Shown piece by piece: positions 27,458-64,000 of a stretch of 64,000 nucleotides of DNA. This DNA is from an uncultured Christensenella sp. (lineage in GTDB: Bacteria > Bacillota > Clostridia > Christensenellales > UBA3700). Location: positions 23,631 to 87,630 of the forward strand of contig CAYZGK010000001.1 of NCBI GenBank assembly GCA_964478025.1, in the 5' to 3' direction. Numbering within the stretch: the first letter of the stretch is position 1; every line of letters starts with the position of its first letter. Below the pieces are notes generated by a model. The model was not told the DNA's origin. It saw only the letters and a list, made by a program, of their open reading frames with translations, and ran no database searches. Both the position numbers and the translations under genes were made by a program.

Positions 27458-27585
27458 ACTGCGCAGTTTTTAGTTTATCAATAAAATTGCGCAGTTTAAA
27501 CACTCTTTTGCTGAAAAAAGAGAAGTAAAGTAACTTTTATATACTGCGCAGTTAAATATGTTTTGATAAAACTGCGCAGTTTAAA
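27458..27585. promoter_or_regulatory. array of four CTGCGCAG-core words in the divergent promoter region
   Basis: ACTGCGCAGTTTT (27458-27470), TTGCGCAGTTTAAA (27487-27500), ACTGCGCAGTTAAA (27543-27556), ACTGCGCAGTTTAAA (27571-27585). The core CTGCGCAG is palindromic. The words form two pairs 28-29 bp apart, and the pairs are 85 bp apart. They lie 36-160 bp upstream of the minus-strand ATPase start. Confidence 0.6.
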
Positions 27586-27777: not shown

Positions 27778-28404
27778 ATGTTTATTGAAAGATTATCTAA
27801 GAAATTCAATGTTAACGAGCCAATTCTTACTGAAGAAATTCTTGGTTTGTTTCCTGAATATTCTCGTGCGCAAGTTTTTCGATATATTGAAAAGGCAAAA
27901 AGGAGCAATGTAATAGTGCAGTTTGCTAAAGGTGTTTATTATATTCCAACCATAACATTTTGGGGCGAATTTTCGACGATAACTGCAGATTCTGTAATTG
28001 AAAAGAAATATCTACGATATGCTGATCAAACTTATGGTATTTACAGTGGAATTAAATTGCTAAATAATTTTTCAATCACAACACAAATGGCAGCCGTTAT
28101 TGAGATTGTTACAAATAATGAAACTACGCGTTGTAGAGAAATAAACATAGGTGGCAGGAAATTTATTTTAAGAAAATCACGTTGTGAAATTAATAAGAAT
28201 AATTATGCAGTATATACAATTTTACAATTGTTTAATGATTTTACGCAACAAGACTGCCTTGATGAATCCTCTCGAAGAATATTGTTAGAATACATAAGAA
28301 ATTATAAAGTAACCCAAAAGCAATTGTTGAAATTGTCAACGCAATTTCCAGCACAAACAACTAAAAAATTAATAAGGAGTGGGATTATTAATGAAATTGC
28401 ATAA
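27778..28404 (+). CDS. AbiEi-family antitoxin/transcriptional regulator (type IV TA)
   Basis: 208 aa. The N-terminal wHTH-like segment (FPEYSRAQVFRYIEKAKRSNVIVQFAKGVYYIP) fits the AbiEi_4 pattern. The gene overlaps the downstream AbiEii-like gene by 14 nt. Confidence 0.65.
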   Translation: MFIERLSKKFNVNEPILTEEILGLFPEYSRAQVFRYIEKAKRSNVIVQFAKGVYYIPTITFWGEFSTITADSVIEKKYLRYADQTYGIYSGIKLLNNFSITTQMAAVIEIVTNNETTRCREINIGGRKFILRKSRCEINKNNYAVYTILQLFNDFTQQDCLDESSRRILLEYIRNYKVTQKQLLKLSTQFPAQTTKKLIRSGIINEIA

Positions 28405-29311
28405 TGATAAAGAACGTTTTGTGGAAGCGGTAATAGCTACAAGTGAAATGCTTGGTATGGATCCTGTATTGGTAGAAAAAGATTATTTTGTTACCTTATT
28501 TTTGAAAAAAGCTGTAGAGAGAATACCGGGGCTTGTTTTTAAAGGTGGGACCTCTTTGTCGAAATGTTATAATCTAATAGATAGGTTTTCTGAAGATATA
28601 GACCTTACGCTTGATAATGAACATTTTACGCAAAGTAAAAAGCGAAATTCTATAAAGGAATTAATCGCAGTATGTGATGAATTAGGACTTGAACTGATAA
28701 ACAAAGAATCAATAGAAAAGCACACTCATGGAAATTATAATTGTTATAACATACATTATCCAATAATTTTTCCTTCAAAGGATGTTAAAAATGAGTTAAA
28801 AGTTGAAATGACATATATTCAGAAATGCTATCCACATGAACAAATTAAAGCCATTTCTTATATAGGAGAATTCTTTGAAAGAAAAGGAAATAATCGGGTT
28901 GTTAATGAGTATGAATTAGATGCATTTACTGTACAGGTACAATCTTTAGAAAGAACATTAGTGGATAAGGTCTTTGCTATATGTGATTATTATCTAAGCA
29001 AAAACACAGTGCGAAATTCAAGGCATATTTATGATATATCGAAATTGTTGACAAAGGTAGATATTTTCGAGCCAAACTTGAAGATGTTGGTTGAGAATGT
29101 AAGAAATGATCGTAAATCAAATAAAACTTGTTTGTCAGCACAGGATGGAATAAAGGTTACTGAACTTTTAAAGAAGATTATTGCAACCAAATTTTTTAAG
29201 CAGGATTATGATGAAATAACTTCAAAGTTGTTGATTAAAGCAGTAAGTTATGATGAAGCAGTTCGGTCATTACAAACGATAATTGATAGTGGCTTGTTTG
29301 AGACAAAATAG
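28391..29311 (+). CDS. AbiEii/AbiGii-family nucleotidyltransferase toxin
   Basis: Signature FKGGTSLSKCYNLIDRFSEDIDL (GGT..L...R.S.D(I/L)D of the DUF1814/AbiEii family). ATG at 28391, in frame with the ORF-track GTG at 28379. GGAG at 28376-28379. Confidence 0.8.
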   Translation: MKLHNDKERFVEAVIATSEMLGMDPVLVEKDYFVTLFLKKAVERIPGLVFKGGTSLSKCYNLIDRFSEDIDLTLDNEHFTQSKKRNSIKELIAVCDELGLELINKESIEKHTHGNYNCYNIHYPIIFPSKDVKNELKVEMTYIQKCYPHEQIKAISYIGEFFERKGNNRVVNEYELDAFTVQVQSLERTLVDKVFAICDYYLSKNTVRNSRHIYDISKLLTKVDIFEPNLKMLVENVRNDRKSNKTCLSAQDGIKVTELLKKIIATKFFKQDYDEITSKLLIKAVSYDEAVRSLQTIIDSGLFETK

Positions 29312-32222: not shown

Positions 32223-32395
32223 CAGTTCACAAGATTAAGTGCTTATAAGAATTTTATTGGAAAAGTGTAAAAAATACTGCTTTTTCTTTTGGAAAAGTGT
32301 AATTTTAGTTTAAAATTTTATTGGAAAAGTGTAATTTTATTGTATGGTATTGTTGAAAATAAACATATTTAAGGAAAAATTGATGTTTTATAAGA
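32223..32395 (+). repeat. about 170-bp direct repeat, copy 1 (promoter/operator region of the DUF4143 pseudogene)
   Basis: Near-identical to 34519-34690: GTTCAC(A/G)AGATTA..AGTG(C/T)TTATAAGAATTTTATTGGAAAAGTG(T/C)AAAAAATACT...TTTTGGAAAAGTG(T/C)AATTTT...ATTATT(G/A)GAAAAGTGTAATTTTATTGTAT. It holds three ATTGGAAAAGTGTAA words (32256-32270, 32291-32306, 32321-32338) at a 32-33 bp period. Confidence 0.85.
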
Positions 32396-32736
32396 AAATA
32401 GAAATAAAGTTAAATCAATGACTATGGTATTAATTTAGGAAGTATATATGAAACAGTTTGTGCAAGTGAATTAATCTCACATGGCCATGAACTTTACTAT
32501 TTTGATAGCAAAAAAGTAGGAGAAGTTGTTTATCTTATAAGCGATTATGATACATTATCGATTTTGCCAATTGAAATCAAATCAAAAAAAGATCAAAATA
32601 ATTTTAGAGCAATCCTTAAGCTAGTAAAGGAGCCATATAATTTAAAAAAAAAGTTATATTTTTTGGTAACGAAAATATTATAAAAGAGGAATATAATCTT
32701 ATAACTTTTCCCATTTATATGATTATGTTTGTATAA
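32383..32736 (+). pseudogene. decayed AAA_14/DUF4143 ATPase (internal deletion plus frameshifts)
   Basis: The ATG at 32383 gives MFYKKIEIKLNQ*, compared with MFERKIEVDLKEY of the 54304 gene. Another frame, from 32414, gives INDYGINLGSIYETVCASELISHGHELYYFDSKKVGEVVYLISDYDTLSILPIEIKSKKDQNNFRAILKLVKEPYNLKKK, which matches the last ~100 aa of the 54304 protein (LDNDKGINLGSVYETVCAMELIAHGHTLYYFDSKKVGEVDFLINDYNSLQVVPIEIKSGNDKNNFRAIPKLV). A further shift at the A9/T6 runs (32644-32664) gives GNENIIKEEYNLITFPIYMIMFV* (stop at 32734-32736). About 330 central codons, including the whole ATPase core, are missing. Confidence 0.85.
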
Positions 32737-32807: not shown

Positions 32808-32855
32808 TAATGTTGCAAATAATGTTGCAAATAATGTTGCAAATAATGTTGCAAG
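32808..32855 (+). repeat. perfect 12-bp tandem repeat x4 upstream of the AlbA_2 gene
   Basis: TAATGTTGCAAA x3 followed by TAATGTTGCAAG, contiguous. Each unit contains the palindromic hexamer TTGCAA. The array ends 22 nt before GGAGG (32878-32882) and 35 nt before the ATG at 32891. Confidence 0.9.
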
Positions 32856-32890
32856 ATGATACAATAAAATCATAATTGGAGGTCCCGAGT

Positions 32891-34207
32891 ATGTATGAAT
32901 GCAATAACATTGAGTTTAAAAGTGAAGTTAACGAAAAATTAGAAAAAGAAGTTGTGGGGTTCTTAAATAGTAATGGTGGACATATTTATTTGGGAATAGA
33001 AGATGATGGAGAAACTGTTATTGGCTTTGAAGATATTGATCAAGCCCAATTGCTTGTTAAAGATAGAATCAAAGATAAGATAGATCCTTCGCCTGTTGGA
33101 TTTTTTGAAATTATTGTAGAAGAAAGAGAAAATAAAAAAATAATACATGTAATCGTTGCTAGAGGAAATGAAAAACCTTATTATTTAAAGAAATATGGCA
33201 TGTGCCCCCTTGGTGCATTTGTAAGAGTCGGAAGTTCTCTTTCTCAATTAACAGAAAAACAAATTTTTGACATGTATTCTAAAAGAACGAGAACTTCATT
33301 AATTAATATTGTTTCGCCAATTAAAAACTTGACTTTTACTCAATTAAAAATATATTACGAAGAAATAGGATATGAAATAAATCCTAATTTATATAATCAA
33401 TTAAATTTCAAGATGAATGGTGGTGAATTTAATTATTTAGCATACTTACTATCTGACCAAAATAGTTTAGTAATTAATGTAGGAAAATTTAAGGGGAATG
33501 ATGTTTATGATTTAGAAGAATTAAAATCATATTCAAATCAGTCTCTTATTAAAACTACACATGAAATTGTAGATTATATTGAAAGTTTAAATAAAACATT
33601 TACTAAAATAACTTCCTCAAAAAGAATTGAAGAGAAATTGTTTGATAGTTTGGCAATGAGAGAAGCTGTTATAAATGCTATAGTCCATTCTGATTATAGT
33701 TATGAAAACTCTCCTACATTTAGAATATTTGATAATCATATTGAAATCATATCCGTTGGTGGTCTACCTGAAGGCATAGAAAAAGAAGAATTTTTAAATG
33801 GATATATGTCTCCTAAAAATCCTCAATTAATGAAAATATTTAGGGATTTAGGATTTGTTGAACATATGGGAACTGGAATAATTAGAATCCTTAAAAAGTA
33901 TGATAAATCGGTTTTTAATTTTAGTACTAATTTTATAAAGGTATCTATTCCCTATAAGAGTGCTTTAACAGTATCAGTCTTTAATAAAACATTGAGTCAA
34001 AGTACAACAAACATTGATATAACCAATAGGCAAAGAGAGATAATTGATTTAATTAATCGGTTTAAGAATATTACACAGGAAGAATTAGCATCCAAATTGA
34101 ATGTATCTAGATATACAATAATAAGAGATTTAAAATCTTTAGAAGAAAAAAATATTATATTTCGTGAAGGATCAAATAAAACTGGCTACTGGAAAGTTAA
34201 TAATTAA
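32891..34207 (+). CDS. AlbA_2 (Schlafen-like) domain / ATPase-like / C-terminal wHTH protein (often annotated as RecG-like putative transcriptional regulator)
   Basis: N-terminus ECNNIEFKSEVNEKLEKEVVGFLNSNGGHIYLGIEDDGE..EKPYYLKK fits the AlbA_2 domain. The central part REAVINAIVHSDYS...GGLPEG...RNPQLMKIFRDLGFVEHMGTGI fits the HATPase_c_4-like region. The C-terminal HTH is ITQEELASKLNVSRYTIIRDLKSLEEKNII. I chose the ATG at 32891 over the ORF-track TTG at 32876, because that TTG overlaps the GGAGG. Confidence 0.8.
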   Translation: MYECNNIEFKSEVNEKLEKEVVGFLNSNGGHIYLGIEDDGETVIGFEDIDQAQLLVKDRIKDKIDPSPVGFFEIIVEERENKKIIHVIVARGNEKPYYLKKYGMCPLGAFVRVGSSLSQLTEKQIFDMYSKRTRTSLINIVSPIKNLTFTQLKIYYEEIGYEINPNLYNQLNFKMNGGEFNYLAYLLSDQNSLVINVGKFKGNDVYDLEELKSYSNQSLIKTTHEIVDYIESLNKTFTKITSSKRIEEKLFDSLAMREAVINAIVHSDYSYENSPTFRIFDNHIEIISVGGLPEGIEKEEFLNGYMSPKNPQLMKIFRDLGFVEHMGTGIIRILKKYDKSVFNFSTNFIKVSIPYKSALTVSVFNKTLSQSTTNIDITNRQREIIDLINRFKNITQEELASKLNVSRYTIIRDLKSLEEKNIIFREGSNKTGYWKVNN

Positions 34208-34417
34208 AATTTTCTTTAAATATGTGTATATTGCAAGTGAATGAAATATATCATATTTCTATAAAAGTTTATCTATAGGTTTGGATGGACAATATAGAAT
34301 TTAAAATATTAGTGGTTTATCCACAAAATTTTACAAAAAAAGTATTATAAAAAGGTTTTTAATTTTTATGACATAAAACAATTAATAGAGAAAAATGCGG
34401 AGTGAAGTTAATGGAGG

Positions 34418-34483
34418 ATATAAAAAGATAATTTGCTTTTTCAATTAATTTTAATTGTACCAGTAATATCTAAAATTGACTTA
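34418..34483 (+). repeat. 66-bp direct repeat, copy B
   Basis: ATATAAAAAGATAATTTGCTTTTTCAATTAATTTTAATTGTACCAGTAATATCTAAAATTGACTTA. 63 of 66 positions are identical to 36183-36248. The 21-nt core ATAATTTGCTTTTTCAATTAA also occurs inverted at 27638-27658. Confidence 0.85.
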
Positions 34484-34518
34484 ATCCAAATTTTTAGGTG
34501 GTTAAACTCCAAATATTG

Positions 34519-34690
34519 GGTTCACGAGATTATTGAGTGTTTATAAGAATTTTATTGGAAAAGTGCAAAAAATACTATTTTTTCTTTTGGAAAAGTGCAA
34601 TTTTGGTTTAAAATATTATTAGAAAAGTGTAATTTTATTGTATATTATTATTGAAAATAAGCATATTTGAGGAAATGTTTGGAAACTTTA
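34519..34690 (+). repeat. about 170-bp direct repeat, copy 2 (orphan promoter/operator remnant)
   Basis: It matches 32223-32395, including three (A/T)TT(G/A)GAAAAGTG(C/T)AA words at a 32-bp period (34554-34635). Only a 20-codon ORF follows it, so the ATPase gene that belongs here appears to be deleted. Confidence 0.8.
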
Positions 34691-35016
34691 TGCATAATTC
34701 ATACATTGTTAATAGCAAAATGGGCATAAGATAAAATCTTTGCTCACTTTTTTGCTCGCTTTTTAAAACTATATAGTATAATTGTTAATGGTAAACTGAA
34801 AATGCTGTAAAATGGCCAACTTAAAATGCTGTTTTATAGAAGTTTTAGTATAATCTCAGTATAAGCCCTAGCGGTTCACGAAAAGTGAAGGTTATACAAA
34901 ATAAGAAAAGACATTATAATCGTGTAAGTCAAAATGGCTATCGTTTTTATTTAACTAAATGTTTACAAAGAGTATGAACTTGGATCCTTTGAATTGGAAT
35001 TGCTCAAATTATATGT

Positions 35017-35083
35017 AATTTGCCCAATTTTAATCGAATTTGTGCGTTTAATCGCCCAAATCTATTGACAATCGCCCAATTTG
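35017..35083 (+). promoter_or_regulatory. AAT(C/T)GCCCAA word array upstream of the fic-like gene
   Basis: AATTTGCCCAATTT (35017-35030), AATCGCCCAAAT (35050-35062) and CAATCGCCCAATTT (35069-35083). Looser relatives are AATTGCTCAAATT (about 34998-35010), AATTTGTGCGTTT (35037-35049) and AATTGTGCAAAAA (about 35091-35103). ATG at 35121. Confidence 0.5.
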
Positions 35084-35120
35084 CTGGTAGAATTGTGCAA
35101 AAAGATAAGGGATTAGGCGC

Positions 35121-36167
35121 ATGAGAAACTTTGATTACAAAAAGCTAAAGGATATTAAGTGGGATAGTGAGATATTGGGATTGGTTGCTCAAATACATGA
35201 ATTTAAAGGGAAGCAGATGTTATTTTTAAAACAAAAGCCAGCAACGCTTGATAAACTTGTAGAGATAGCGAAAATACAAAGCACCGAGGCTTCCAATAAA
35301 ATAGAGGGCATTGTAACTACGGCTACTCGTATTAAGCAGTTATGCGACCAAAAGACTACACCGAGAAATAGAGACGAAGAAGAAATTTCTGGGTATCGAG
35401 ATGCTCTGTCGCTAATTCACGAGAGTTATGAGTATATTCCGATAAAATCTTCATATATTTTGCAATTGCATCAGGTATTATATCGTTATTCTGAAAGGGG
35501 TATCGGTGGTAGATTTAAGAATGCGCAAAACTATATTGCAGAAATCAAAGAAACCGGCGAACAAATTGTGCGTTTTATGCCACTTGATCCATTTGAAACC
35601 CCGATGGCAATAGAGGCAATATGTGAAAGCTTTAATCGTGAAATGGATTTTTGCGAAATTGATCCGCTTATTCTCATTCCGGCGTTTATTATTGATTTCT
35701 TATGTATTCATCCATTCAATGACGGCAATGGAAGAATGTCGCGTTTGCTTACGACTTTGCTTTTATATCGTGCGGGGTATGTTGTAGGTAAATATGTGAG
35801 TCTGGAGAGCAAAATTGAAAAAACAAAAGCAAGTTATTATGAAACGCTCGAAAAAAGTGATATTGGTTGGAACAGCGAAGAAAACGATATAATTCCTTTT
35901 ATAAAATATATGCTCGGAACAATTTTGGCTGCTTATAGAGATTTCGAGGAAAGAGTAACTTTGGTGGAAGGTAAATCATTGGCAATCGATTTAGTGAGAA
36001 ATGCAGTAAATAATACAATTGGCAAGTTTACTAAGAGCAATATAATGGAACTTGTACCATCCGTAGGCAAAACATCTATTGAAAATTCTTTAAAAACTTT
36101 AATCGACGAAGGAGTTATAGGAAGAGAAGGCAAAGGAAAGGCAACGTTTTACTTTAGAAAAAATTGA
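35121..36167 (+). CDS. Fic-family protein (class II, N-terminal inhibitory helix) with C-terminal wHTH
   Basis: Fic active-site motif HPFNDGNGRMSR. N-terminal inhibitory motif SNKIEG, which fits (S/T)xxxE(G/N). The C-terminal segment KSNIMELVPSVGKTSIENSLKTLIDEGVIGREGKGKATFY is wHTH-like. TGA stop. GC content is higher than in the neighbours: 23/60 in line 35521, against 15/60 in line 36301. Confidence 0.9.
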   Translation: MRNFDYKKLKDIKWDSEILGLVAQIHEFKGKQMLFLKQKPATLDKLVEIAKIQSTEASNKIEGIVTTATRIKQLCDQKTTPRNRDEEEISGYRDALSLIHESYEYIPIKSSYILQLHQVLYRYSERGIGGRFKNAQNYIAEIKETGEQIVRFMPLDPFETPMAIEAICESFNREMDFCEIDPLILIPAFIIDFLCIHPFNDGNGRMSRLLTTLLLYRAGYVVGKYVSLESKIEKTKASYYETLEKSDIGWNSEENDIIPFIKYMLGTILAAYRDFEERVTLVEGKSLAIDLVRNAVNNTIGKFTKSNIMELVPSVGKTSIENSLKTLIDEGVIGREGKGKATFYFRKN

Positions 36168-44809: not shown

Positions 44810-47800
44810 ATGAAAAAGAAATTATCAGTATTATTAATAATTGTATTAGCAATTGTACTTATATGTACAACGTCTGTTTGTTTTGCAGATAGTGAAGAAG
44901 CTTCAAGCGTTTCTTCAACAACTCTAACCTCGCTTGCCGGAGAGGAGATAGATATTAGTAATATTGAAAATTACTTAACTGAAAATATATTAAATGCTTC
45001 ATTAGACGAAACGGTTAGAGTAATTGTTAAATATAACGATGAAAAGAGCCATAATATAGTTGATGATCTAAAAACACTTGGATGTGAGGTAACACTAAAT
45101 TATACATATTCAAAATTCTTTACCGGAAGTTCAATAACTATACTTTCACAAGATATATTAAGCTTATCTAATTTATCTTATGTAAAGAGCGTTTCGATAT
45201 GTCCACAATATACTGTTTTATCAACCTATTCATCATCCTCTGGTACAAATGAAGGTATTATAGATAATACTACATCATATCAAGGAGACGGAATGGTAGT
45301 TGCTGTTATTGATGGATCGTTTGATGTAACTCATGAGGCTTTTTCTAATATATCTTCAACATCTTTAACTATTACAAAAGATACTTATTCCCAAAGTTTA
45401 ATTAAGAGTTTAAATTCATACTCATTATCAGGTGCTACGGCTGCTGATTTATATTTATCAGATAAAATTGTATACGCTTATGATTATGGTGAATACGATG
45501 TTGATGTATATGACGCAACTTTATCTCATGGTACTCATGTAGCTGGAATTTTAGCAGGAAATTCATCTACCTTTAAAGGAGTAGTTCCAAATGCACAATT
45601 AGCATTAATGAAGGTTGCTGATTCTGAAGGCATAATGTATGATGATTCAATTATTTCAGCACTTGAGGATTGTCTAACTTTAAATGTTGATGTAGTTAAT
45701 ATGTCACTAGGATCTAATGGCGGATTTAGTTATAAAGATGATGACGGAATGATGCTAGCTATAGATAAACTAGAAAGCCAAGGAATAACAGTTGTTTGTG
45801 CTGCTGGTAACGCAACAACAAGTGCTGTTGGGGGTGAGAGTGGAGATTTGGCCGATGAGGCAAACATAGATAATAGTGCAGTTTGTTCTCCAGCTACATA
45901 TGCTTCTTCTTATTCTATAGGTAGTGCTGCTGAAATAAAATATATGATGGTAGGCTCTTCAAAAATAGAATACAATGATGTTTATTACTATAAAACCTCA
46001 TCAGATGGTGATTTTTATAATGATTTTGTATCTTCAGGTTCACTAGATTACATCATCTTAAAAAATAGCGATGATATAGCATATGGCAAAGAGAGTGATT
46101 ACGAGGGATTAGATGTAACAAATAAAATAGTAGTTGTACAAAGATCTGCCGATATGACAGTAACTGAAAAAATAGCAATAGCTAAAGAAAAAGGTGCAGA
46201 AGGTGTAATTATTGTTAATAATACTGAAGGCTCAGTAAATTTTGGAGTTCAAGGCTCAGATACCGTACCAACTATTTCAGTAACATCAAGCGTAGGTAAA
46301 ATATTAATACAAAACGCTATTTCAAATGAAGGTACTCTTACATTAGATTCATCATATTATTATTCTGGAATTTCAAGTTTTTCTTCAAGAGGAGTAAATG
46401 ACGATTTAACTTTAGGTATAGATGTTGTTGCATATGGAACAGGGATTTACTCTTTAGGATTAGATCAAAGTTATATGACAAACTCTGGAACATCAATGGC
46501 CTCACCAAATGCGGCTGGTGCATTTACTGTTATAAAACAATATGTAAAAGCAAATGCTTCAACATTCGGCATAGATGCTACAAATAAAATTGAAATATCG
46601 ACAGTTGCCTCACGACTTTTAATGTCAAATACAACACTTCTTACAGACATTAATGGAGTGTTATATTCACCACGTTCACAAGGTGCAGGACTTGTAGATA
46701 TAAATAAGGCAACAAGTACATTATCTTACATTACAACTTTTGATAGTGATGGTAATGAAATAGATAAAACAAAAATTGAACTTGGAGATAACGTAAGTAA
46801 TTCATTTGTATTAAAACTAAAGGTTTCTAACTTTAGTACAACAAGTGAGACTTATGAAATTTCAGCAAACGTATTAACAGAAGCTCTAACAGAAGATAAT
46901 AAAATGAGCGGACTTGATGAAGAGTTAACTTTTGCAATTATAAACGTTAAAAATGGAAACTTTAGCAATAATAAATGGACTGTAACTGTTGATGCTGGGT
47001 CAAGTGCTGAAATTGAAATTACAATTGCATTAGATAGCAGTGCAATGCTTATTCTAGATAAATTCACAAACGGAACATATGTTGAAGGTTATGTTTATCT
47101 AAATGGAATTAATAATACATTAACTTGTCCATTTATTGGATTCTATGGCGACTGGGACGATGCTTCTATGTTAGATATAACAGCATACGATGAGGCAAAT
47201 GGAAGTGAAGCAGCAATGAGAGCTTCTACATCTTATGGTATATATGCAGGAAGTTATTACATCCCTATGGGTGAGTATGCATATGAAGTTGCAGAAGGTT
47301 ATGAAAAACCAACAGCTAACGAAGAATATTCAGCTCTATCAATTTATTCTTCTTCAATGTATGCTCTTGGTTATATCCAACTTGGATTACTTAGAAATGC
47401 AGAGAGAATTGAACTTGTTGTGTCTGATTCAGTAACAGGAAGCGTTTTAACTACTGGAACAATAGATTATGCAACTAAGACAATGTATTTTTCAGCTTAT
47501 GGCATGCTTTATGGTGGAGATTTAACATTAACAATTTCTCCATATAAGTTAGGGTTAAGCAATAACGGAAAATATAATGTTACATTAAACATTTATAGAA
47601 CATATGATGAGGAAAGTGAAAAAAATACAATTTCAGACACATATACACAAAACTTCTATGTAGATTATGAATTACCTGAAATTACAGATATAAAATATAC
47701 AACAGAAAATGGAAAGGTTTATGCAAATATTGAAATGTATGATAACCACTACATTCAAGCAATAGGAATTTGTACAGGTAAAGGAACAAGTGCTACAAAT

Positions 47801-50800
47801 GTAACGCTAACAGCACAAGATTTCTATCCTGTAGCAACAAGTGCAGATGGTGTTGGACAAACAAAGAGCTTAAAGATAGATATAACTGACGCTATATCTA
47901 AAGCTTCAAATGGTTATATTTATTTCTATGTTGTAGATTATGCTTTTAATGCTAATATCTATTACGATTCTATCTCTAATATGGGAAATCAAACATCTAC
48001 AAGTAAAAAGGGAGATACATCAGATTCTAAAGGACCAACAGCTCAAACTGATTTAACTGAATCTAAATTTGAATTTGTAAGTAGCGAGATAGAAATTGCA
48101 GTTGATCAAGAAATAGATTTAGCTCAAACAAAATATTTAACAGGATATAACGTTGAAGATACATTTACATGGACTGCCTCAAAAGGAACTATTTTAGCAA
48201 TGTCAAATGGTAAAATTACTGGTTTATCTGAAGGTATGGCAGTAGTTAGCGTAACTAATAAGAATAATGTTACTACAAGTTTAATTGTTAATGTTGTTGC
48301 AGATTCTAATAATGAATATGAGTCAGCTACATTTGAAAAGGCTTATATAAGTGGCTATTCAATGAAAAACACTATAACCGAAGATGGCGATTCTTTCTTT
48401 GATATAAATGTTGAAAATAATGAAATAAAACTTGCTCCAAATGAGTCATTAAGATTTGAATATGGTTATACTCCTTATAATTATAACTATGTAGAAAATC
48501 CTATAACTATTTATATAAATATTGCGGATACTAATATTGTTTCACTAACAAATGGAACATTAAAGGCGGTAAGCGAAGGAACAACAACAGTTACAATAAA
48601 GGTTAATGGAGCAACAGGAACAACAATTGCAGAGTATAGTGTAACTGTATCTCCAGAGATTTATATAAATGAAAATAAGGTACTTTTAGCTTGCTTTAGT
48701 TTAGATACAAATATTGACTTATCTTCAAAAGATATAGTTGCAATAAGTTCAAAGGCATTTACTTATGCTAAAAATGCAGAAACTATTACGCTTCCAGCCA
48801 CATGTACAACAATAAGTGAGTATGCTTTTGCAAAGAACGCATCAATTAAAAATGTAGTGTTTACAAATAATAAAGTAACCTATATTAAAGATCATGCATT
48901 CTCAGGCGATGTATGTTTAGAGAGTATTGATTTAACAGGAGTTGCTCAAGTGGGTGATTATGCATTTGAGAATTGTTCAAACTTAAATGAAATAATTTTA
49001 GACTCTCAAACAGTATCAGATATTTCAATTTCTATGCTTGCTTTTGATGGTTGCAGTAAACTTGAAAATTTCACAATTGATGGAAATAAAACTCCAAATA
49101 TAATTATTGATGGCATGCTTGTAATGTCGCTAGATTATGAGTCAATACTAACAGATTCAACTATAAAGAGCATTGGCAAAAATGTATTTAGTAACTTAAA
49201 GAATGAAGATACTATTGATTTAACAGGAACATCTATTGAAAGAATAGAAAATGGGGCCTTTGAGGGCAATAGTGAGATTAAATACGTTTACTTGCCTTCA
49301 AGTATAAATTACATTGGTTCTAACGCCTTTAGTGACTGTGAGAGTTTATGTACATTAAATATTGCATCTGGTAGGGGAGATTTATATATAGGCTCATATG
49401 CTTTTGCTAACACTGCTATTGATATAATCAATATAAAGGATAAGACAACAACACTTGGTGATTATGTATTTATGGGAGACACATCGCTTGTTGGTGCAAT
49501 GCTTGGTTCTGTTCAAAAGATAGGAAAGTATACTTTTGCAAAGTGTACAAGTTTACAAAAAGTTGTACTTGCTGATGGCTCTAAAGATTTAGGAACATAT
49601 ACTTTTGCTCCAATTACTGAAAATAATAAGACATATTATTTAAGTAAATTAAGCACTGTTACTATTCCAAATACAATAACAAGTATTAAGGAGTACGTAT
49701 TTGCTTATTGTACTTCATTAAAGACTTTAGAAACTTCAAATATTGAAAGTGTTGGTGATTATTCATTCTATGGTTGTACATCACTTAATAGTCTTGCATT
49801 TAATAAGGCAAGTAGTATTGGATACGCTGCCTTTGCAAACTCATCAATTCAATCTATTGAAATAGGAAACTCACTAACAAGTGGAACAATTGATATAGAT
49901 GGTGTTGCCTTCTATGGATGTGAAAACTTATCTACTGTAAAGTGGCCAACAAGTGAAGGAATTTCAATAAAGGTAGGTTATGGTTCTTTCTATAAATGTA
50001 CAAGTCTAGCTACAAGTAACTCATTTGTAATAGGTGGTTTTAAACCTACAACAAGTAGTGGAATTAATTTATCAAGAGTAGAAAGTGTAGAAGATTATGG
50101 TTTTGCATACTGCGAAGCTTTAAATAGAATTGACTTAACTAATTGTAAAGAAATTGGTTATGCAGCCTTTGCAGAATGTTCAAAGTTAACATCTGTAACA
50201 TTAGGAAGCGTTGAGTCTATAGAAGATTTAGCATTTATAAATACAAAGATTACAAAAATAACATTGCCAAGCAGCCTAACATATCTTGGTATGGCAGTAT
50301 TTGGTGGAACATCAGCAGTTGTAAGTGTAGAAGATAATAATAATTTAGTTGTAGATGCTACAAGCGATGGATATTCTGTAATTTATACAAAATTAGATAA
50401 TGGAAGTTTAATGCTTGCATATTACCCAATATCTTCAACATCAACATCATACTCAATTAAAGCTAATACAAGTTATATCTCAAGTTATGCATTCTATAAT
50501 GCTCAATCATTAAAGAGTATAACAATACCTGCTACTGTTAAATATATAGGACATGCAGCATTCTATGGTTGTTCATCATTAAGTAGTGTTTACTTTAGTG
50601 GAACATCAGCTCCAGCGTTACTTGCTGAATATAATTCTGATGAAGATGACTTATATTGTAATTTCGTAAATTATGTATCAGAAGTTGAGGGCTTAACATT
50701 ATACGTTGGTTCTAATAGTGTAAAAGAAACATTTAACAACAATCCAACTTGGTCTTCTTTCTTTAGCAGTATAAGAGTTTCTTCTTCGATTGATATTGTT

Positions 50801-51265
50801 GATGATGTTGATTTAGATACATTTAAAAATAGTTTAAATAACTTTGGCAGTGAAGTTACTGCGAAAAACTATAAGCAATTTGAAAAAATTGTAACAATGT
50901 ATAGTAATTTATCAACTGAAGATATAGAAGAATTAAGAAGCACTACAGATGGGGAAATGTTATATAATAAGTATAATACACTTCTTGCTCAATACAACGA
51001 GTTAAATACAGGCTCTAGTGATGATACTACAACAAATTCGGATAGTATTCCTAAGTGGGCAATTATCTTACTTGTGGTAGGTGGTGCATTAGTCATTCTA
51101 GGCTTAACAGGATTTGTATTTGTATATCTATCTAAAGGAATGTTAAGAAAAAATAATGTCGTAGTTAAGAATTCTGAAGATGATATAGAAAATGTAGAGA
51201 AAAAGAAAGAGACGAAAAAAGAAAAGAAAAAAGATGATTTTAATGACATCTTTAAGGACAATTAA
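44810..51265 (+). CDS. cell-surface subtilisin-like serine protease (S8, lactocepin/C5a-peptidase-like) with PA domain, Big_2-like domains, BspA-type LRR region and C-terminal TM anchor
   Basis: Sec signal MKKKLSVLLIIVLAIVLICTTSVCFA. Catalytic triad blocks VVAVIDGSFD, HGTHVAGI and SGTSMASPNAAG. PA-domain insert KIVVVQRSADMT..EKGAEGVIIVNN. Big_2-like segments (ILAMSNGKITGLSEGMAVVSVTN, LTNGTLKAVSEGTTTVTIKV). About 1.9 kb of LRR_5 repeats (ISEYAFAKNASIKNVVF.., VGDYAFENCSNLNEIIL.., IGYAAFAECSKLTSVTL..). C-terminal TM WAIILLVVGGALVILGLTGFVFVYL and a K/E tail. No LPXTG. Confidence 0.9.
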   Translation: MKKKLSVLLIIVLAIVLICTTSVCFADSEEASSVSSTTLTSLAGEEIDISNIENYLTENILNASLDETVRVIVKYNDEKSHNIVDDLKTLGCEVTLNYTYSKFFTGSSITILSQDILSLSNLSYVKSVSICPQYTVLSTYSSSSGTNEGIIDNTTSYQGDGMVVAVIDGSFDVTHEAFSNISSTSLTITKDTYSQSLIKSLNSYSLSGATAADLYLSDKIVYAYDYGEYDVDVYDATLSHGTHVAGILAGNSSTFKGVVPNAQLALMKVADSEGIMYDDSIISALEDCLTLNVDVVNMSLGSNGGFSYKDDDGMMLAIDKLESQGITVVCAAGNATTSAVGGESGDLADEANIDNSAVCSPATYASSYSIGSAAEIKYMMVGSSKIEYNDVYYYKTSSDGDFYNDFVSSGSLDYIILKNSDDIAYGKESDYEGLDVTNKIVVVQRSADMTVTEKIAIAKEKGAEGVIIVNNTEGSVNFGVQGSDTVPTISVTSSVGKILIQNAISNEGTLTLDSSYYYSGISSFSSRGVNDDLTLGIDVVAYGTGIYSLGLDQSYMTNSGTSMASPNAAGAFTVIKQYVKANASTFGIDATNKIEISTVASRLLMSNTTLLTDINGVLYSPRSQGAGLVDINKATSTLSYITTFDSDGNEIDKTKIELGDNVSNSFVLKLKVSNFSTTSETYEISANVLTEALTEDNKMSGLDEELTFAIINVKNGNFSNNKWTVTVDAGSSAEIEITIALDSSAMLILDKFTNGTYVEGYVYLNGINNTLTCPFIGFYGDWDDASMLDITAYDEANGSEAAMRASTSYGIYAGSYYIPMGEYAYEVAEGYEKPTANEEYSALSIYSSSMYALGYIQLGLLRNAERIELVVSDSVTGSVLTTGTIDYATKTMYFSAYGMLYGGDLTLTISPYKLGLSNNGKYNVTLNIYRTYDEESEKNTISDTYTQNFYVDYELPEITDIKYTTENGKVYANIEMYDNHYIQAIGICTGKGTSATNVTLTAQDFYPVATSADGVGQTKSLKIDITDAISKASNGYIYFYVVDYAFNANIYYDSISNMGNQTSTSKKGDTSDSKGPTAQTDLTESKFEFVSSEIEIAVDQEIDLAQTKYLTGYNVEDTFTWTASKGTILAMSNGKITGLSEGMAVVSVTNKNNVTTSLIVNVVADSNNEYESATFEKAYISGYSMKNTITEDGDSFFDINVENNEIKLAPNESLRFEYGYTPYNYNYVENPITIYINIADTNIVSLTNGTLKAVSEGTTTVTIKVNGATGTTIAEYSVTVSPEIYINENKVLLACFSLDTNIDLSSKDIVAISSKAFTYAKNAETITLPATCTTISEYAFAKNASIKNVVFTNNKVTYIKDHAFSGDVCLESIDLTGVAQVGDYAFENCSNLNEIILDSQTVSDISISMLAFDGCSKLENFTIDGNKTPNIIIDGMLVMSLDYESILTDSTIKSIGKNVFSNLKNEDTIDLTGTSIERIENGAFEGNSEIKYVYLPSSINYIGSNAFSDCESLCTLNIASGRGDLYIGSYAFANTAIDIINIKDKTTTLGDYVFMGDTSLVGAMLGSVQKIGKYTFAKCTSLQKVVLADGSKDLGTYTFAPITENNKTYYLSKLSTVTIPNTITSIKEYVFAYCTSLKTLETSNIESVGDYSFYGCTSLNSLAFNKASSIGYAAFANSSIQSIEIGNSLTSGTIDIDGVAFYGCENLSTVKWPTSEGISIKVGYGSFYKCTSLATSNSFVIGGFKPTTSSGINLSRVESVEDYGFAYCEALNRIDLTNCKEIGYAAFAECSKLTSVTLGSVESIEDLAFINTKITKITLPSSLTYLGMAVFGGTSAVVSVEDNNNLVVDATSDGYSVIYTKLDNGSLMLAYYPISSTSTSYSIKANTSYISSYAFYNAQSLKSITIPATVKYIGHAAFYGCSSLSSVYFSGTSAPALLAEYNSDEDDLYCNFVNYVSEVEGLTLYVGSNSVKETFNNNPTWSSFFSSIRVSSSIDIVDDVDLDTFKNSLNNFGSEVTAKNYKQFEKIVTMYSNLSTEDIEELRSTTDGEMLYNKYNTLLAQYNELNTGSSDDTTTNSDSIPKWAIILLVVGGALVILGLTGFVFVYLSKGMLRKNNVVVKNSEDDIENVEKKKETKKEKKKDDFNDIFKDN

Positions 51266-53885: not shown

Positions 53886-53901
53886 GGCTTAATTTAAGCC
53901 T
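53885..53901. terminator. AT-rich palindrome between convergent genes
   Basis: AGGCTTAA-T-TTAAGCCT. It overlaps the stop codons of both the radical SAM gene and the small minus-strand ORF. Confidence 0.3.
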
Positions 53902-54025
53902 CTAAGGCGTCTATGTCCTCTAATTCTAATTCTTCAGAATCGATTTCTTCAATATCTTCAAGTTCATCAATGTTGATATCGATTTCTTCTAACTCTTCTG
54001 GACCATTTAAAATAACATTTTCCAT
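53894..54025 (-). CDS. 43-aa hyper-acidic small protein (absent from the ORF track because it is under 60 aa)
   Basis: My translation of the minus strand is MENVILNGPEELEEIDINIDELEDIEEIDSEELELEDIDALEA*, with 20 D/E residues and no K/R/H. RBS AAGGGGA lies 8 nt upstream of the ATG (54025). A near-consensus promoter lies upstream. Confidence 0.5.
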   Translation of the reverse strand: MENVILNGPEELEEIDINIDELEDIEEIDSEELELEDIDALEA

Positions 54026-54143: not shown

Positions 54144-54296
54144 AAATTATTAGAAAAACCGATGAAATGATATGAAAAAATATTGGAAAAACCATAATTA
54201 TATTGCTAAAAAATATTGGAAAAGCCATAATTTTATTAATAAAAAATATTGGAAAAACTGATAATATAATGTAAAATAATATTAGAAAAGGAGAGA
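54144..54296 (+). repeat. 33-bp-period direct repeat array upstream of a DUF4143 ATPase
   Basis: Three strong units start at 54175, 54208 and 54241: AAAAAATATTGGAAAAACCATAATTATATTGCT, AAAAAATATTGGAAAAGCCATAATTTTATTAAT, AAAAAATATTGGAAAAACTGATAATATAATGTA. Degenerate units flank them (AAATTATTAGAAAAACCGATGAAATGATATG at 54144, AAAATAATATTAGAAAAGGAGAG at 54274). The last unit runs into the RBS. Confidence 0.85.
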
Positions 54297-54303
54297 GCAT
54301 CGC

Positions 54304-55620
54304 ATGTTTGAGAGAAAAATAGAAGTAGATTTAAAAGAATACTATGACAATAAAGATGATAAAATTGTTATTGTTGATGGTGCAAGACAAATTGGGAAAA
54401 GCTTTATTATTAGAGAAACGGCATCAAAAAAATTTAAAAATTACATTGAAATAGATTTAAAAAGTGATTATGAAGGTGAGCAAAATTTCTTAAAAGTTAA
54501 AACTACGAAAGCTTTTTATTTACTTCTTGGGTCTTTGTATGGAGATAAATTAAATTCTTTAGATGATACAATTATTTTCTTAGATGAAATACAATATTAT
54601 CCTCATCTTATAACAATGCTTAAAGACTTGAAAAAAGAAAATAGATATCGTTATATTGCAAGTGGATCTTTACTTGGTGTTACATTAAAACATATTTTTA
54701 TTCCAATGGGTTCGATTAATGAAATTAAAATGTATCCAATGGATTTTGAAGAATTTTTATGGGCTAATTGTGTTAGTAAAGAAATTGTTTCCTATTTAAA
54801 AGAATGTTTTACTAATAAAACTCAAGTTGATGAAGTTGTTCATAATCAGATTTTATCATTATTTAAAGATTATCTTATAAGTGGTGGTTTGCCTGATGCA
54901 GTGACTGAGTATGTTAAAAATATGAACGTTATTAAGACTAGAAATATCCAATCTCAAACATTTAATTATTATCGTGATGATTGTGCAAAATATGATTTAG
55001 ATAAAAGACTAAAAATTTCAAAAGTATATGATATGTTAATATCTAATATGCAAAATAAAGTTAAGAGAATTCAATTTAGAAAAATTGAATCTTTGGAAAA
55101 TAGTTCATTAGAAAAATATGAAGAAGAATTTGATTATTTAGTTGCATCAGGTGTTTCTTTATCCGTAAGAGCAATAGGTAATCCTAAATTTCCTTTAAAT
55201 GAAACAATATGTAAAAATCTAGTTAAACTATATTACAACGATGTTGGTATATTAACTAATTTATTATATAAAAATAATATTAGTGCAATACTTGATAATG
55301 ACAAAGGAATAAATCTTGGATCGGTATATGAAACAGTTTGTGCAATGGAATTAATCGCGCATGGACATACATTATATTATTTTGATAGTAAAAAGGTAGG
55401 GGAAGTAGATTTTTTAATAAACGATTATAATTCACTTCAAGTTGTGCCTATTGAAATTAAATCTGGTAATGATAAAAACAATTTTAGAGCGATTCCTAAA
55501 TTGGTAGATAAAAATGGTAATTATAAATTGCCTATAGGTTATGTATTTGGAAATAAAAATAAATGTGAAATTAAAGATAATTTAATAACAATGCCAATTT
55601 ATATGATAATGTTTGTTTAA
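54304..55620 (+). CDS. AAA_14/DUF4143-family ATPase with PD-(D/E)XK-like C-terminal motif
   Basis: Walker A GARQIGKS and Walker B IIFLDEIQ. The C-terminal GEVDFLINDYNSLQVVPIEIKSG shows a D...E-x-K pattern. RBS AAAGGAGAG. Confidence 0.85.
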   Translation: MFERKIEVDLKEYYDNKDDKIVIVDGARQIGKSFIIRETASKKFKNYIEIDLKSDYEGEQNFLKVKTTKAFYLLLGSLYGDKLNSLDDTIIFLDEIQYYPHLITMLKDLKKENRYRYIASGSLLGVTLKHIFIPMGSINEIKMYPMDFEEFLWANCVSKEIVSYLKECFTNKTQVDEVVHNQILSLFKDYLISGGLPDAVTEYVKNMNVIKTRNIQSQTFNYYRDDCAKYDLDKRLKISKVYDMLISNMQNKVKRIQFRKIESLENSSLEKYEEEFDYLVASGVSLSVRAIGNPKFPLNETICKNLVKLYYNDVGILTNLLYKNNISAILDNDKGINLGSVYETVCAMELIAHGHTLYYFDSKKVGEVDFLINDYNSLQVVPIEIKSGNDKNNFRAIPKLVDKNGNYKLPIGYVFGNKNKCEIKDNLITMPIYMIMFV

Positions 55621-63325: not shown

Positions 63326-63395
63326 GCCGATTGCAATCGGCATAATTTCCGGTTTACAATCGGCATAATTTGCCGATTCCGTTCGGCATAATTTT
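63326..63395 (+). repeat. AATCGGCATAATTT word array with GCCGA..TCGGC palindromes
   Basis: CAATCGGCATAATTT at 63334-63348 and 63357-63371, and GTTCGGCATAATTTT at 63381-63395 (period 23-24 bp). The first word is the right arm of a perfect 16-bp palindrome, GCCGATTGCAATCGGC (63326-63341). The third is the right arm of an imperfect one (63372-63387). Confidence 0.8.
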
Positions 63396-63434: not shown

Positions 63435-63521
63435 TATATGCGTTTTTTGTAGTTTTTGCACAAATCCGTATATGCGTTTTTTGTAGTTTTTTGTTATTTT
63501 TCGATTGCGTTTTTTGTTTTT
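63435..63521 (+). repeat. 23-bp direct repeat, 33-34 bp period, upstream of a DUF4143 ATPase
   Basis: TATATGCGTTTTTTGTAGTTTTT at 63435-63457 and, identically, at 63469-63491. A partial third copy TGCGTTTTTTGTTTTT is at 63506-63521. ATG at 63570. Confidence 0.85.
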
Positions 63522-63569
63522 ATATTGTATACTCAAACTATAAAAAAATAAAAAAAGGTTATTTAATTT

Positions 63570-64000
63570 ATGATTTTTAAGCGAAAAATATATTCAAAGT
63601 TGTTAGGTTGGAAGTCAGATTCAAAGGGGACAAAAGCACTTCTTATTGAAGGTGCAAGACGAATAGGTAAGTCGACTATTGTCGAAGAATTTGCAAAAAA
63701 TGAATATAAAAGTTATATTCTAGTCGATTTCAATGATGTAAGTGATGTAGTAATAGATGCTTTCAATAGATATTTAAATGATCTTGATACTTTTTTTATG
63801 ATTCTTTCAACTGAATATGGAGTTACATTACACAAGAGAGAATCTCTCATTATATTTGATGAAATACAAAAATTTCCAAAAGCAAGGCAATCTATAAAAA
63901 AACTAGTAAAAGATGGAAGATATGATTATCTTGAAACGGGTTCTCTTATTTCAATAAAAGAGAATGTTAAAAACATAACTATTCCTTCAGAAGAGAGACA
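63570..64000 (+). CDS. AAA_14/DUF4143-family ATPase, 3' end outside the window (absent from the ORF track)
   Basis: My translation from the ATG at 63570 is MIFKRKIYSKLLGWKSDSKGTKALLIEGARRIGKSTIVEEFAKNEYKSYILVDFND...ESLIIFDEIQKFPKARQSIKKLVKDGRYDYLETGSLISIKE... It has Walker A GARRIGKS and Walker B LIIFDEIQ. The frame stays open to the window end. Confidence 0.8.
   Translation, partial: MIFKRKIYSKLLGWKSDSKGTKALLIEGARRIGKSTIVEEFAKNEYKSYILVDFNDVSDVVIDAFNRYLNDLDTFFMILSTEYGVTLHKRESLIIFDEIQKFPKARQSIKKLVKDGRYDYLETGSLISIKENVKNITIPSEER

Follow-up and report, generated by a model that had tools for sequence, protein, structure and literature searches.

DnaA represses its own promoter through DnaA boxes, and the iterons of plasmids and phages (RepA, pi, TrfA) are direct repeats of ~17-22 bp situated by the gene of an autoregulating winged-helix Rep protein. 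In the case of AbiEi (AbiE), BrxR and CapW, a separate small winged helix-turn-helix (wHTH) regulator binds inverted promoter repeats as a dimer. Here we describe arrays of short direct repeats, or words, upstream of AAA_14/DUF4143 ATPase genes in a stretch of 64,000 nucleotides from an uncultured Christensenella sp. (contig CAYZGK010000001.1, positions 23,631 to 87,630), referred to as the window, and compare them with the upstream regions of related genes in other bacteria. The gene located at 54304-55620 (the 54304 gene) and the five repeat units that precede it are taken as the reference.

The AAA_14 + DUF4143 family corresponds to COG1373, and DUF4143 has been placed in the PD-(D/E)XK superfamily, function unknown (PMC3424549). 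The window proteins have the fusion of an ATPase with a PD-(D/E)xK domain described earlier (PMC12988326, PMC3424549), and the family, as PDC-S01, has been listed as a phage-defence candidate since PADLOC-DB v2. PDC-S01 has been ranked fourth by frequency among the defence types of prokaryotes, validation pending (PMC12988326), has ~39,000 occurrences in one survey and reportedly belongs to the candidate defence genes of highest abundance in bacteria and archaea (PMC12988326, PMC13356809), no other single locus type having been more frequent in rumen genomes (PMC13356809). In E. coli B, one representative did not protect against T4, T5 or T7 (bioRxiv 10.1101/2024.09.26.614923). A first-pass annotation of the window had known of no function for this protein family; the family is not unannotated, being already catalogued as a PADLOC candidate. 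The papers searched on DUF4143, COG1373 and PDC-S01 treat a protein family of unknown mechanism and contained no mention of upstream repeats, autoregulation or DNA-binding specificity; the protein family is already known, and the upstream arrays, of which no description was found, are what the window analysis adds.

Like Orc1/Cdc6 with its origin recognition boxes (ORB) and DnaA with its boxes, the genes studied here code for an AAA+ protein with a putative winged-helix-type reader and carry copies of a word directly upstream, the binding being predicted in the present case. They differ from both in that the arrays are promoter-centred, follow a strict 32-33 bp period, consist of words private to each paralog and occur in many copies per genome, and in that a nuclease domain, lacking in the initiators, is present. 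As in iterons, which number three to seven, direct repeats stand beside the gene in a fixed helical phase, whereas the period is 33 bp (three turns) and not about 22 bp, the loci are chromosomal and multicopy, the neighbour is an AAA+ ATPase-nuclease and not a Rep protein, and the array lies on the promoter and not beside an AT-rich origin. Since the adjacent gene is not a Rep gene and the loci are chromosomal, among housekeeping genes, they were not assigned to the plasmid or phage iterons. The arrangement proposed here resembles AbiEi, BrxR and CapW in that a defence-type gene would be restrained by sequence-specific binding at its own promoter; in contrast to these, the effector itself would regulate, and 3-5 direct repeats would imply a polar oligomer. 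The element would appear to belong with autoregulatory operators or iteron-like arrays, its architecture being deeply conserved and of unusual rigidity.

Repeat arrays upstream of AAA_14/DUF4143 genes

The window carries four copies of the AAA_14/DUF4143 family and one orphan promoter remnant, each with its own upstream word array. The first-pass annotation had reported repeat arrays upstream of all four family members, with words differing by paralog; every array was located, and four different words were found at the four ATPases. The genes are the following.

54304-55620, plus strand: intact AAA_14/DUF4143 gene, 438 aa (Pfam, PADLOC PDC-S01, AlphaFold2, Foldseek).
26241-27422 (27431 as alternative), minus strand: intact AAA_14/DUF4143 paralog (Pfam, PADLOC PDC-S01, GGAG before the ATG at 27422).
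63570-64000, plus strand: fourth AAA_14 paralog, N-terminal 143 codons, running past the window end (Pfam AAA_14, E = 7e-20).
32384-32736, plus strand: decayed AAA_14/DUF4143 copy, in which a short N-terminal fragment is joined by an internal deletion to the C-terminal ~107 codons (tblastn, sequence).

Pfam searches identified AAA_14 (PF13173) in the three coding copies (E = 3e-22, 1.5e-29 and 7e-20), including the window-truncated 63570 gene, and DUF4143 (PF13635) in both intact genes (E = 3.6e-23 and 2.6e-14). Full-length profiles of PDC-S01 matched the 54304 gene (PDLC04792, E = 6e-150) and the 26241 gene (PDLC04787, E = 1.4e-115), the likely start codon of the latter being the ATG at 27422. 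The decayed copy, which had been reported near 32383-32736, was recovered by tblastn, residues 332-438 mapping to 32417-32733 with 67-71% identity. The ATPase genes are dispersed among housekeeping genes (radical SAM, plsY, ychF, argS, cysS), further neighbours being an AbiEi/AbiEii pair, an AlbA_2-HATPase_c_4-HTH gene and a Fic gene. The window is made up of AT-rich chromosomal DNA, regarded in the analysis as that of a Mollicutes-like member of the Bacilli, and it is in metagenome-assembled genomes of Anaeroplasmataceae and 'Candidatus Caccosoma' that the protein encoded at 54304 has its nearest homologs.

The array of the 54304 gene and the promoter predicted within it are located as follows.

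54146-54296, plus strand: array of the 54304 ATPase gene, upstream of it and made up of five 33-bp units (Tandem Repeats Finder (TRF), word search, units in register).
54249-54277, plus strand: predicted core promoter within the array, -35 TTGGAA at 54249-54254, N17, -10 TAAAAT at 54272-54277 (consensus scan and comparison).

Analysis with TRF indicated a 33-bp period array of 3.5-4.4 copies at 54144-54289. Placing the units in register revealed five cores, TTAGAAAA at 54150, TTGGAAAA at 54183, 54216 and 54249 and TTAGAAAA at 54282, and the exact 33-bp period claimed for this array was thereby borne out at all steps. The cores are followed by the tails ACCGAT, ACCATA, GCCATA, ACTGAT and GGAGAG, in this order. 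The word ATTGGAAAARYY had three matches in the window as compared to 0.33 expected, all of them in this array; neither the 54304 words nor those of the pseudogene and its orphan copy had further matches in the 64 kb, and every word family of the window was strongly over-represented relative to shuffled sequence.

The upstream regions of 71 relatives of the 54304 gene, 25-79% identical and derived from Mollicutes-like Bacilli, Lachnospiraceae and Bacteroidales, were also analysed. Relatives were collected from one genome per species (59 loci) and, by means of an alignment, from IMG/VR contigs (42 loci); a scan of IMG/VR with the single 54304 protein gave no match, while the alignment-based scan found these loci. 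Relatives of the 26241 and 63570 genes were drawn from metagenome and IMG/VR contigs. An array was scored when at least 3 copies of a 10-mer, with at most 1 mismatch and after complexity filtering, occurred within 220 bp upstream of the gene, and 358 other genes from the same loci served as controls. Arrays were detected for 58 of the 71 members of the 54304 subfamily (82%) as compared to 10 of the 358 controls (2.8%; Fisher p = 3e-48), for 6 of 22 members of the 26241 subfamily (27%; p = 1e-4 against the controls) and for 6 of 11 members of the 63570 subfamily (p = 1e-6), so that arrays are not equally common upstream of unrelated genes. An independent score based on exact 9-mers was reached by 64% of the family genes and by 3% of the controls. 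Among the few high-scoring controls were genes sharing their array with an ATPase gene transcribed divergently from them, as well as an AlbA_2-like gene, and at least one of the 10 is itself a divergent AAA_14/DUF4143 gene, missed by BLAST. Neither phylogenetic non-independence nor the presence of a few near-duplicates was taken into account in these counts, and the effect is too large for either to matter.

Arrays were present in 82-97% of the relatives, across phyla, and the architecture is common to essentially all intact relatives of the 54304 gene from 79% down to 25% identity; orthologs thus do carry upstream repeats. The 25 close relatives (loci L001-L026, 50-78% identity) carry 2-5 units of [T]ATTGGAAAA followed by a tail, the exceptions being decayed copies or arrays reduced to one or two units. 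Arrays were likewise found in relatives at 29-39% identity from Lachnospiraceae, Clostridia and Bacteroidales, and in relatives on IMG/VR contigs at 25-49% identity. The Bacillota that bear them comprise Anaeroplasma-like Bacilli, Erysipelotrichaceae, Roseburia, Agathobacter, Dorea and other Lachnospiraceae, and the Bacteroidales comprise Alistipes, Muribaculaceae, Prevotellaceae and Porphyromonadaceae. In 48 loci aligned in register, 72 of the 105 intervals between units measured 33 bp, 20 measured 32 bp and 4 measured 31 bp, twenty loci having three units and twenty having four. A detector that makes no use of the word found at least 3 chained units at 31-35 bp in 62 of the 71 loci. Among the four paralogs of the window, the 32-34 bp period that had been reported holds for three; the array of the 26241 gene is spaced at 28/57/28 bp.

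ORF families located beside the ATPase gene were compared in the 48 loci and none was common to more than four; the one found in four was an artefact, since the array itself had been read as an ORF. A separate conserved regulator or partner gene was accordingly rejected, and from phylum to phylum the array is accompanied by the ATPase gene only. Very close relatives that have their genomic context in common may differ in unit number (4 in L005 and 2 in L006; 3 in L020 and 1-2 in L001), and arrays therefore gain or lose whole 33-bp units quickly, which could serve as a tuning of expression.

Alignment of the units revealed that each consists of a ~16-nt word, made up of a core and a 5-6 nt tail, and of a spacer. 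Within an array the pairwise identity was 0.65-1.0 over the word, while it was 0.3-0.4, that is at background, in the ~10 nt that follow and in the spacers; the words are therefore under selection and the units are not recent copies of one another. The core TTGGAAAA, with the variants TTAGAAAA, TAGGAAAA, ATTGAAAA and TTTGAAAA, is common to nearly the whole 54304 subfamily. The tail is uniform within an array and different between genes, examples being ACCGAT/ACCGGT, GTTATA, GTGTAA, GTGGAA, GTCCCA, CTCCCA, GTCAGA, GTTGCA, ATAACA, ATCACA, ATTGAA, ACGGCA and ACGGAC. Paralogs residing in the same genome always had different words, as seen for the four of the window and at loci L006, L019, L021, L040 and L047. 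The view that distant paralogs share nothing was too strong, given that words of the GAAAAGTGTA type recur in relatives only 25-62% identical and that TGCGCA cores were found in two subfamilies.

The A/T content of 185 units peaks at positions 5-8, 15-18 and 26-29, ~11 bp apart or about once per turn, while the informative G/C positions fall between these peaks. The phased A-tracts noticed at the 54304 array by the first-pass annotation are thus a property of the whole subfamily, and the phasing is probably the signature of DNA that is contacted on one face and bent. A CRISPR array was considered and rejected, given a word of ~16 nt, only 3-5 units, A/T-rich and partly conserved spacers of ~17 nt, and an array that ends in a ribosome-binding site and ATG and is not accompanied by cas genes.

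Overlap of the arrays with predicted promoters

In the 54304 array the -35 hexamer TTGGAA of the predicted promoter is the core of the penultimate word, and transcription is predicted to start within the last word (54282-54295), which extends into GGAGAG, the ribosome-binding site. The same arrangement was observed in the Bacillota loci, in which a TAnnnT hexamer follows TTGGAA after 16-18 nt in 63% of the penultimate units as compared to 8-12% of the units located farther upstream; this hexamer is mostly TATAAT or TAAAAT, often with TG before it. Since the -10 hexamer occurs mainly at the penultimate unit, the array contains one promoter and the upstream units do not represent additional ones. 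The last unit begins about where transcription is predicted to start, and between its end and the ATG lie 29-60 nt.

Promoters of the phylum to which the Bacteroidales belong are composed of a -33 element TTTG and a -7 element TAnnTTTG. In the Bacteroidales loci the core TTTG was found exactly 19 nt before a TAnnTTTG motif, examples being TTTG-N19-TATTTTTG (L037) and CTTG-N19-TATATTTG (L145). The core has thus tracked the promoter grammar of the host while the period and the array have been kept. As judged from these predictions, the array sites overlap the core promoter and start of the downstream gene.

Just past the 54304 array, on the minus strand and divergent from the gene, lies an ORF of 43 aa coding for the hyper-acidic peptide MENVILNGPEELEEIDINIDELEDIEEIDSEELELEDIDALEA (53894-54025). 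It is not conserved beside the orthologs and may be spurious or code for a small DNA-mimic-like protein.

The ATPase as candidate reader of the words

Two regions of the 54304 protein were delimited by comparison of its relatives.

55051-55131, plus strand: residues 250-276, loop and N-terminus of helix 269-281 in a winged-helix-like segment (residues 238-311, 55015-55236; partial Mantel peak).
55318-55596, plus strand: PD-(D/E)xK nuclease-like domain, residues 339-431, with E343, D369, E384 and K386 conserved (38-sequence alignment).

The Walker A and B motifs and the nuclease-like C-terminal motif that the first-pass annotation had recognised were confirmed as Walker A G26-S33, Walker B D94 and E95, and E343...D369...E384-x-K386; alignment of 38 homologs showed that GxRQxGKS, hhhhDE and the nuclease motif residues are invariant or nearly so. 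The AlphaFold2 model of the protein (pLDDT 85.9, pTM 0.86) consists of an AAA+ module (residues 1-155), a helical lid (159-234), a segment of helix, low-confidence loop, helix and beta-hairpin (238-311) and an alpha/beta domain of the PD-(D/E)xK type (339-431). The best Foldseek matches in the Protein Data Bank (PDB) were AAA+ initiators, clamp loaders and STAND proteins, namely Orc1/Cdc6-DNA complexes (2qby_A, 2v1u_A), ORC subunits, RFC, Avs/NLR proteins and MuB; the whole-model matches to Orc1/Cdc6-DNA had E ~ 2e-5 with TM-scores of only about 0.3. Searching the PDB by sequence, whether with the protein alone, with the full alignment or with that of the domain, gave no relevant match.

The first-pass annotation had further proposed that protein and word co-diverge, and we compared word tails and proteins in 55 sequences by means of a partial Mantel test in a sliding window, controlling for whole-protein distance. 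The tail covaries with the protein most strongly at residues 250-276 (r = 0.24), a value reached in any window by none of 500 permutations, the 99th percentile of the permutation maximum being 0.15; a prior scan of 43 sequences had peaked at residues 238-297. When the alignments were sorted by tail, ...ENK[ED]D[ST]NLEKY... (E[DE][ST]NL) accompanied ACCG tails, ...K[KR]GKTF.DY... accompanied GTCA while ...KGK[KR][FYM]S.Y... accompanied GTGT, ...KFERY... accompanied ACGGCA while ...K[FL][SK]R[YL]... accompanied ACGGACA, and ...YDRTEN... accompanied ATAACA while ...YDRVAN... accompanied GTTGCA. Columns kept in the ACCG group and altered in relatives with GT tails include D266 (in all six), L269 and E273. 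Residues 250-276, at the would-be recognition helix of the winged helix in the model, are tentatively regarded as a candidate specificity-determining segment.

The reading that we consider reasonably probable is one in which the ATPase, bound to its own promoter as an oligomer arranged head to tail, acts there as a repressor, in negative autoregulation, and in which private words insulate the paralogs from one another. Each AAA_14/DUF4143 (PDC-S01) gene would then be a self-contained and self-regulated module, its product composed of an Orc1/Cdc6-like AAA+ ATPase, a winged-helix-like DNA-reading segment and a PD-(D/E)xK domain and binding a gene-specific word of ~16 bp, which segment 238-311 would read. 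In the 54304 subfamily three to five direct-repeat words, three helical turns (32-33 bp) apart, would cover about -100 to +20, the penultimate word holding the predicted -35 (Bacillota) or -33 (Bacteroidales) element and the last one lying over the predicted transcription start. AAA+ oligomers are built through an asymmetric head-to-tail interface, with which direct repeats are consistent; the repeats would be direct and their spacing fixed because protomers on successive words touch via this polar interface, on one face of A/T-phased and probably bent DNA. As the bound 3-5-mer would cover the -35/-33 element and the start site, it would occlude RNA polymerase, repress the gene and hold the level of a potentially toxic ATPase-nuclease constant, while the private words would prevent cross-regulation among co-resident paralogs. 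That the ATPase is the binder, that its binding is cooperative and ATP-dependent and that repression is the effect, we infer from the sequences. Negative autoregulation would suit a protein whose ATPase and nuclease motifs are intact and whose gene moves singly between hosts.

Several observations weigh against this interpretation. Promoters and start sites are predictions, supported by the comparison across loci, and the consensus promoter scan is not significant alone, with 17 sites as compared to 15.7 expected from shuffling of this AT-rich DNA; it is from the position of the words only that repression, rather than activation, is argued. The covariation is modest, the permutation test ignores phylogeny, and co-divergence is not universal because the word GAAAAGTGTA is kept by proteins only 25-62% identical. 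Tails are mixed within some arrays (L030, L137). The 26241 subfamily is less regular, only 27% of its members having at least 3 copies, with words that are often palindromic and a spacing of 28 bp. The winged-helix assignment is weak: residues 251-268 have a pLDDT below 50 in the full model, the AlphaFold2 model of the isolated residues 232-330 was unusable (pLDDT 46), and Pfam and profile searches of the isolated segment retrieved DUF4143 only.

The main alternative, which is not exclusive of autoregulation, is that the ATPase-bound array acts mainly as a platform or sensor, either as a nucleation site for an ATP-dependent oligomer or as a decoy that is out-titrated by word-bearing invader DNA, with derepression following and the nuclease being directed there. 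We hold this to be rather unlikely. The intact and conserved ATPase and nuclease motifs, the enrichment of the family in defence contexts as PDC-S01 (PMC12988326) and words that diversify among paralogs like specificity determinants would fit it, as would the phage contig L185, in which seven iteron-like TTTTGGAAAAACCG(G/A) units at 33-36 bp lie next to a replication helicase gene. These units (1700-1960 of the IMG/VR contig) are located between an AAA_25 helicase gene and rusA and are followed by an AT-rich stretch and an inverted repeat; the region is probably an iteron-bearing origin of the phage, and the ACCGG-type words at the ATPase promoters of L005, L007 and L011 do not differ from its word. 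However, L185 is the single phage match of a search biased towards it, and is a lead only. That search of IMG/VR, for three copies of TTGGAAAA at 32-34 bp, returned 36 stretches, mostly coding 11-residue repeats of giant viruses or phages, with one true ATPase promoter and the L185 region among them; a follow-up with two copies of GGAAAAACCG was uninformative, returning more than 120 mostly unrelated repeats. Indeed GGAAAAACCG repeats are frequent in phage contigs for unrelated reasons, the more than 120 stretches being mostly of 30-bp period or coding. In the 64-kb window the words are confined to their own promoters, and in E. coli B the single PDC-S01 representative tested did not figure among the systems protective against T4, T5 or T7 (bioRxiv 10.1101/2024.09.26.614923). 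That each ATPase recognises its own words, as the first-pass annotation had proposed, is supported so far as sequence analysis reaches. The first-pass annotation had left open whether the words serve autoregulation or an assembly or self-marking site; their position on the -35/-33 element and the predicted start favours autoregulation.

A more far-reaching version, to which we give a slim chance, is that PDC-S01 is a vast and hypervariable family of word-reading AAA+ nucleases, each having its DNA target spelled out in its promoter, in which the promoter array holds a sub-threshold, repressing oligomer and invader arrays of the word, for instance origin iterons of phages or plasmids such as the TTTTGGAAAAACCGG units of L185, titrate or nucleate the protein, leading to derepression and to an active ATPase-nuclease assembled on the invader. 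If this were true, tens of thousands of immune genes that are uncharacterised would have a specificity readable directly from genome sequence.

It is improbable that the words are bound by another protein, such as a global regulator or a nucleoid protein, or that they are reiterated -35 or UP-like elements recruiting RNA polymerase, the ATPase being uninvolved. A core, TTGGAAAA/TTTGAAAA, that is common to most arrays and coincides with the host -35/-33 element would agree with such a binder, as would the phased A-tracts in the units, but the 5-6 nt tail is gene-specific, differing between paralogs of the same genome and between orthologs of related hosts, and covaries with the ATPase sequence. 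The architecture is moreover retained across Bacillota and Bacteroidota despite their different sigma factors and regulators, the upstream units are not followed by a -10 element, and it is the ATPase gene alone that travels with the array.

Little can be said for the arrays being a neutral by-product, generated by tandem duplication or slippage of the promoter and homogenised by unequal recombination. Copy number does vary in close relatives (1-2 in L001 and 3 in L020; 4 in L005 and 2 in L006), and the three units of L028 are identical over their full length. However, in most arrays the spacers have become near-random and the words have been retained, a fixed period of 32-33 bp is seen across phyla, and arrays precede 82% of the family members as compared to 2.8% of the controls, by which this explanation is largely refuted.

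There is equally little to expect of the proposal that the repeats are origin iterons or end sites of a mobile element and the ATPase an initiator or a transposition regulator of the TnsC/MuB type. The Orc1/Cdc6-like fold, the presence of MuB among the Foldseek matches, the resemblance of direct repeats beside the gene to iterons or ORB elements, and the scattered copies with pseudogenes and an orphan array point in this direction. On the other hand, several copies lie among housekeeping genes in one chromosome segment, and an origin role is unlikely with four copies inside 64 kb of a single chromosome; downstream of the gene the word does not recur in inverted orientation, the loci are devoid of transposase, integrase or Rep genes, and the words lie on the gene's own promoter.

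Least credible is an action of the repeats in RNA, where they would form a 5' leader that is structured or bound by protein, and an RNA element was rejected. The mRNA is predicted to begin at the last unit, and in some 63570 orthologs (L112, L113) all words lie downstream of the predicted promoter, but Rfam scans of the window, of the array at a permissive E-value and of 13 related loci gave no family for the region (only a tRNA and a glycine riboswitch located elsewhere), the fold of the array and leader is no more stable than that of shuffled sequences (z = -1.7; 15 of 200 shuffles as good), the orientation of the repeats is direct rather than inverted, and the predicted -10 is preceded by most of the units.

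Autoregulation by the ATPase at its own words would amount to the first concrete molecular prediction for PDC-S01, that of sequence-specific DNA binders assembling head to tail every 33 bp, with a predicted cognate DNA word for each individual gene, so that specificity and mechanism become directly testable. In defence assays, cloning with the native promoter would bring along a probable autorepressor site, and a foreign promoter would remove such control. Plain negative autoregulation would be conventional biology, yet a three-turn direct-repeat operator across phyla would be unusual and useful.

Arrays of the other paralogs and neighbouring genes

The arrays of the remaining paralogs of the window are the following.

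32257-32334, plus strand: three copies of TTGGAAAAGTGTAA at a 32-bp period, upstream of the decayed paralog (word search, sequence).
34555-34632, plus strand: orphan array of three TT(G/A)GAAAAGTG(C/T)AA words, period 32 bp (word search, comparison with the pseudogene promoter).
27457-27581, minus strand: four near-palindromic words (A/T)A(C/T)TGCGCAGTT, spaced at 28/57/28 bp, in the promoter of the 26241 ATPase (word search, sequence).
63435-63533, plus strand: three TATATGCGTTTTTTGTAG-type words upstream of the 63570 gene (sequence; orthologs L114 and L115).
63326-63394, plus strand: separate array of three CAATCGGCATAATTT units, period 23 bp, 180-245 bp upstream of the 63570 start codon (TRF).

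The word TTGGAAAAGTGTAA was found at 32257, 32289 and 32321 and again at 34555, 34587 and 34619, six matches as compared to 0.19 expected. The second set belongs to a region (34540-34680) that is a ~90% identical duplicate of the pseudogene upstream region and has no gene downstream of it. It is contained in a non-coding stretch of 900 bp (34208-35120) together with two other repeat pairs, TTTGCTCACTTT twice at 34739-34764 and a 24-bp unit twice at 34787-34832; the stretch looks like a graveyard of the promoters of lost genes.

The words of the 26241 gene, which may also be written A/TACTGCGCAGTT or (A/T)ACTGCGCAGTT, are located at 27457, 27485, 27542 and 27570. With at most 2 mismatches the word had 8 matches in the window as compared to 1.6 expected, and with at most 1 mismatch it was restricted to the four of its own promoter and one inside the gene at 27132. 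The predicted promoter, on the minus strand, consists of a -35 TTGATA at 27476-27481 and a -10 TATAAT at 27453-27458, the spacer of 17 bp being filled by the word at 27457-27468 (ACTGCGCAG). In the orthologs L060-L062 the TGCGCA words beside TATAAT are kept. Divergent from the 26241 gene lies a toxin-antitoxin pair of DUF6088 (AbiEi-like) and AbiEii (27778-29311, plus strand); the TGCGCA words sit on the ATPase side of the intergenic region and are kept in ATPase orthologs that do not have AbiE.

The words of the 63570 gene, (T)GCGTTTTTTGT, have their GCG at 63440, 63474 and 63507, with a spacing of 34 and 33 bp, and the orthologs L114 and L115 carry AAATTGCGATTTTG three times at 33 bp. The last word supplies the predicted -35 TTGCGT (63505-63510), which is followed by a 17-bp spacer and the -10 TGTATACT at 63526-63533. 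The CAATCGGCATAATTT array located farther upstream may be a second or remnant array of this gene; its unit is similar to CTGCGCATAATGG, the word of the closest orthologs (L112, L113), and the 23-bp period also occurs in another paralog family (L040, 2847-4127).

Extension of the word logic to the neighbouring AlbA_2 and Fic genes, as proposed in the first-pass annotation, would draw on the window and one incidental locus. Searches of IMG/VR for relatives of these two genes gave no match. An exact tandem array of 12-bp period, TAATGTTGCAAA four times at 32808-32854, is located directly upstream of the AlbA_2/HATPase_c_4/HTH gene (32876-34207), another solitary DNA-binding-domain gene with a private word, and an AlbA_2-like gene of L026 is preceded by repeated ATGTCACTTTG words. 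Upstream of the Fic gene (35121-36167), which matches PADLOC SoFic, about three words of the AATCGCCCAA type (35006-35090) flank a TTGACA hexamer. Elsewhere in the window two giant ORFs of the plus strand, 5823-25202 (6459 aa) and 44810-51265 (2151 aa), presumably code for surface or adhesin-type proteins.

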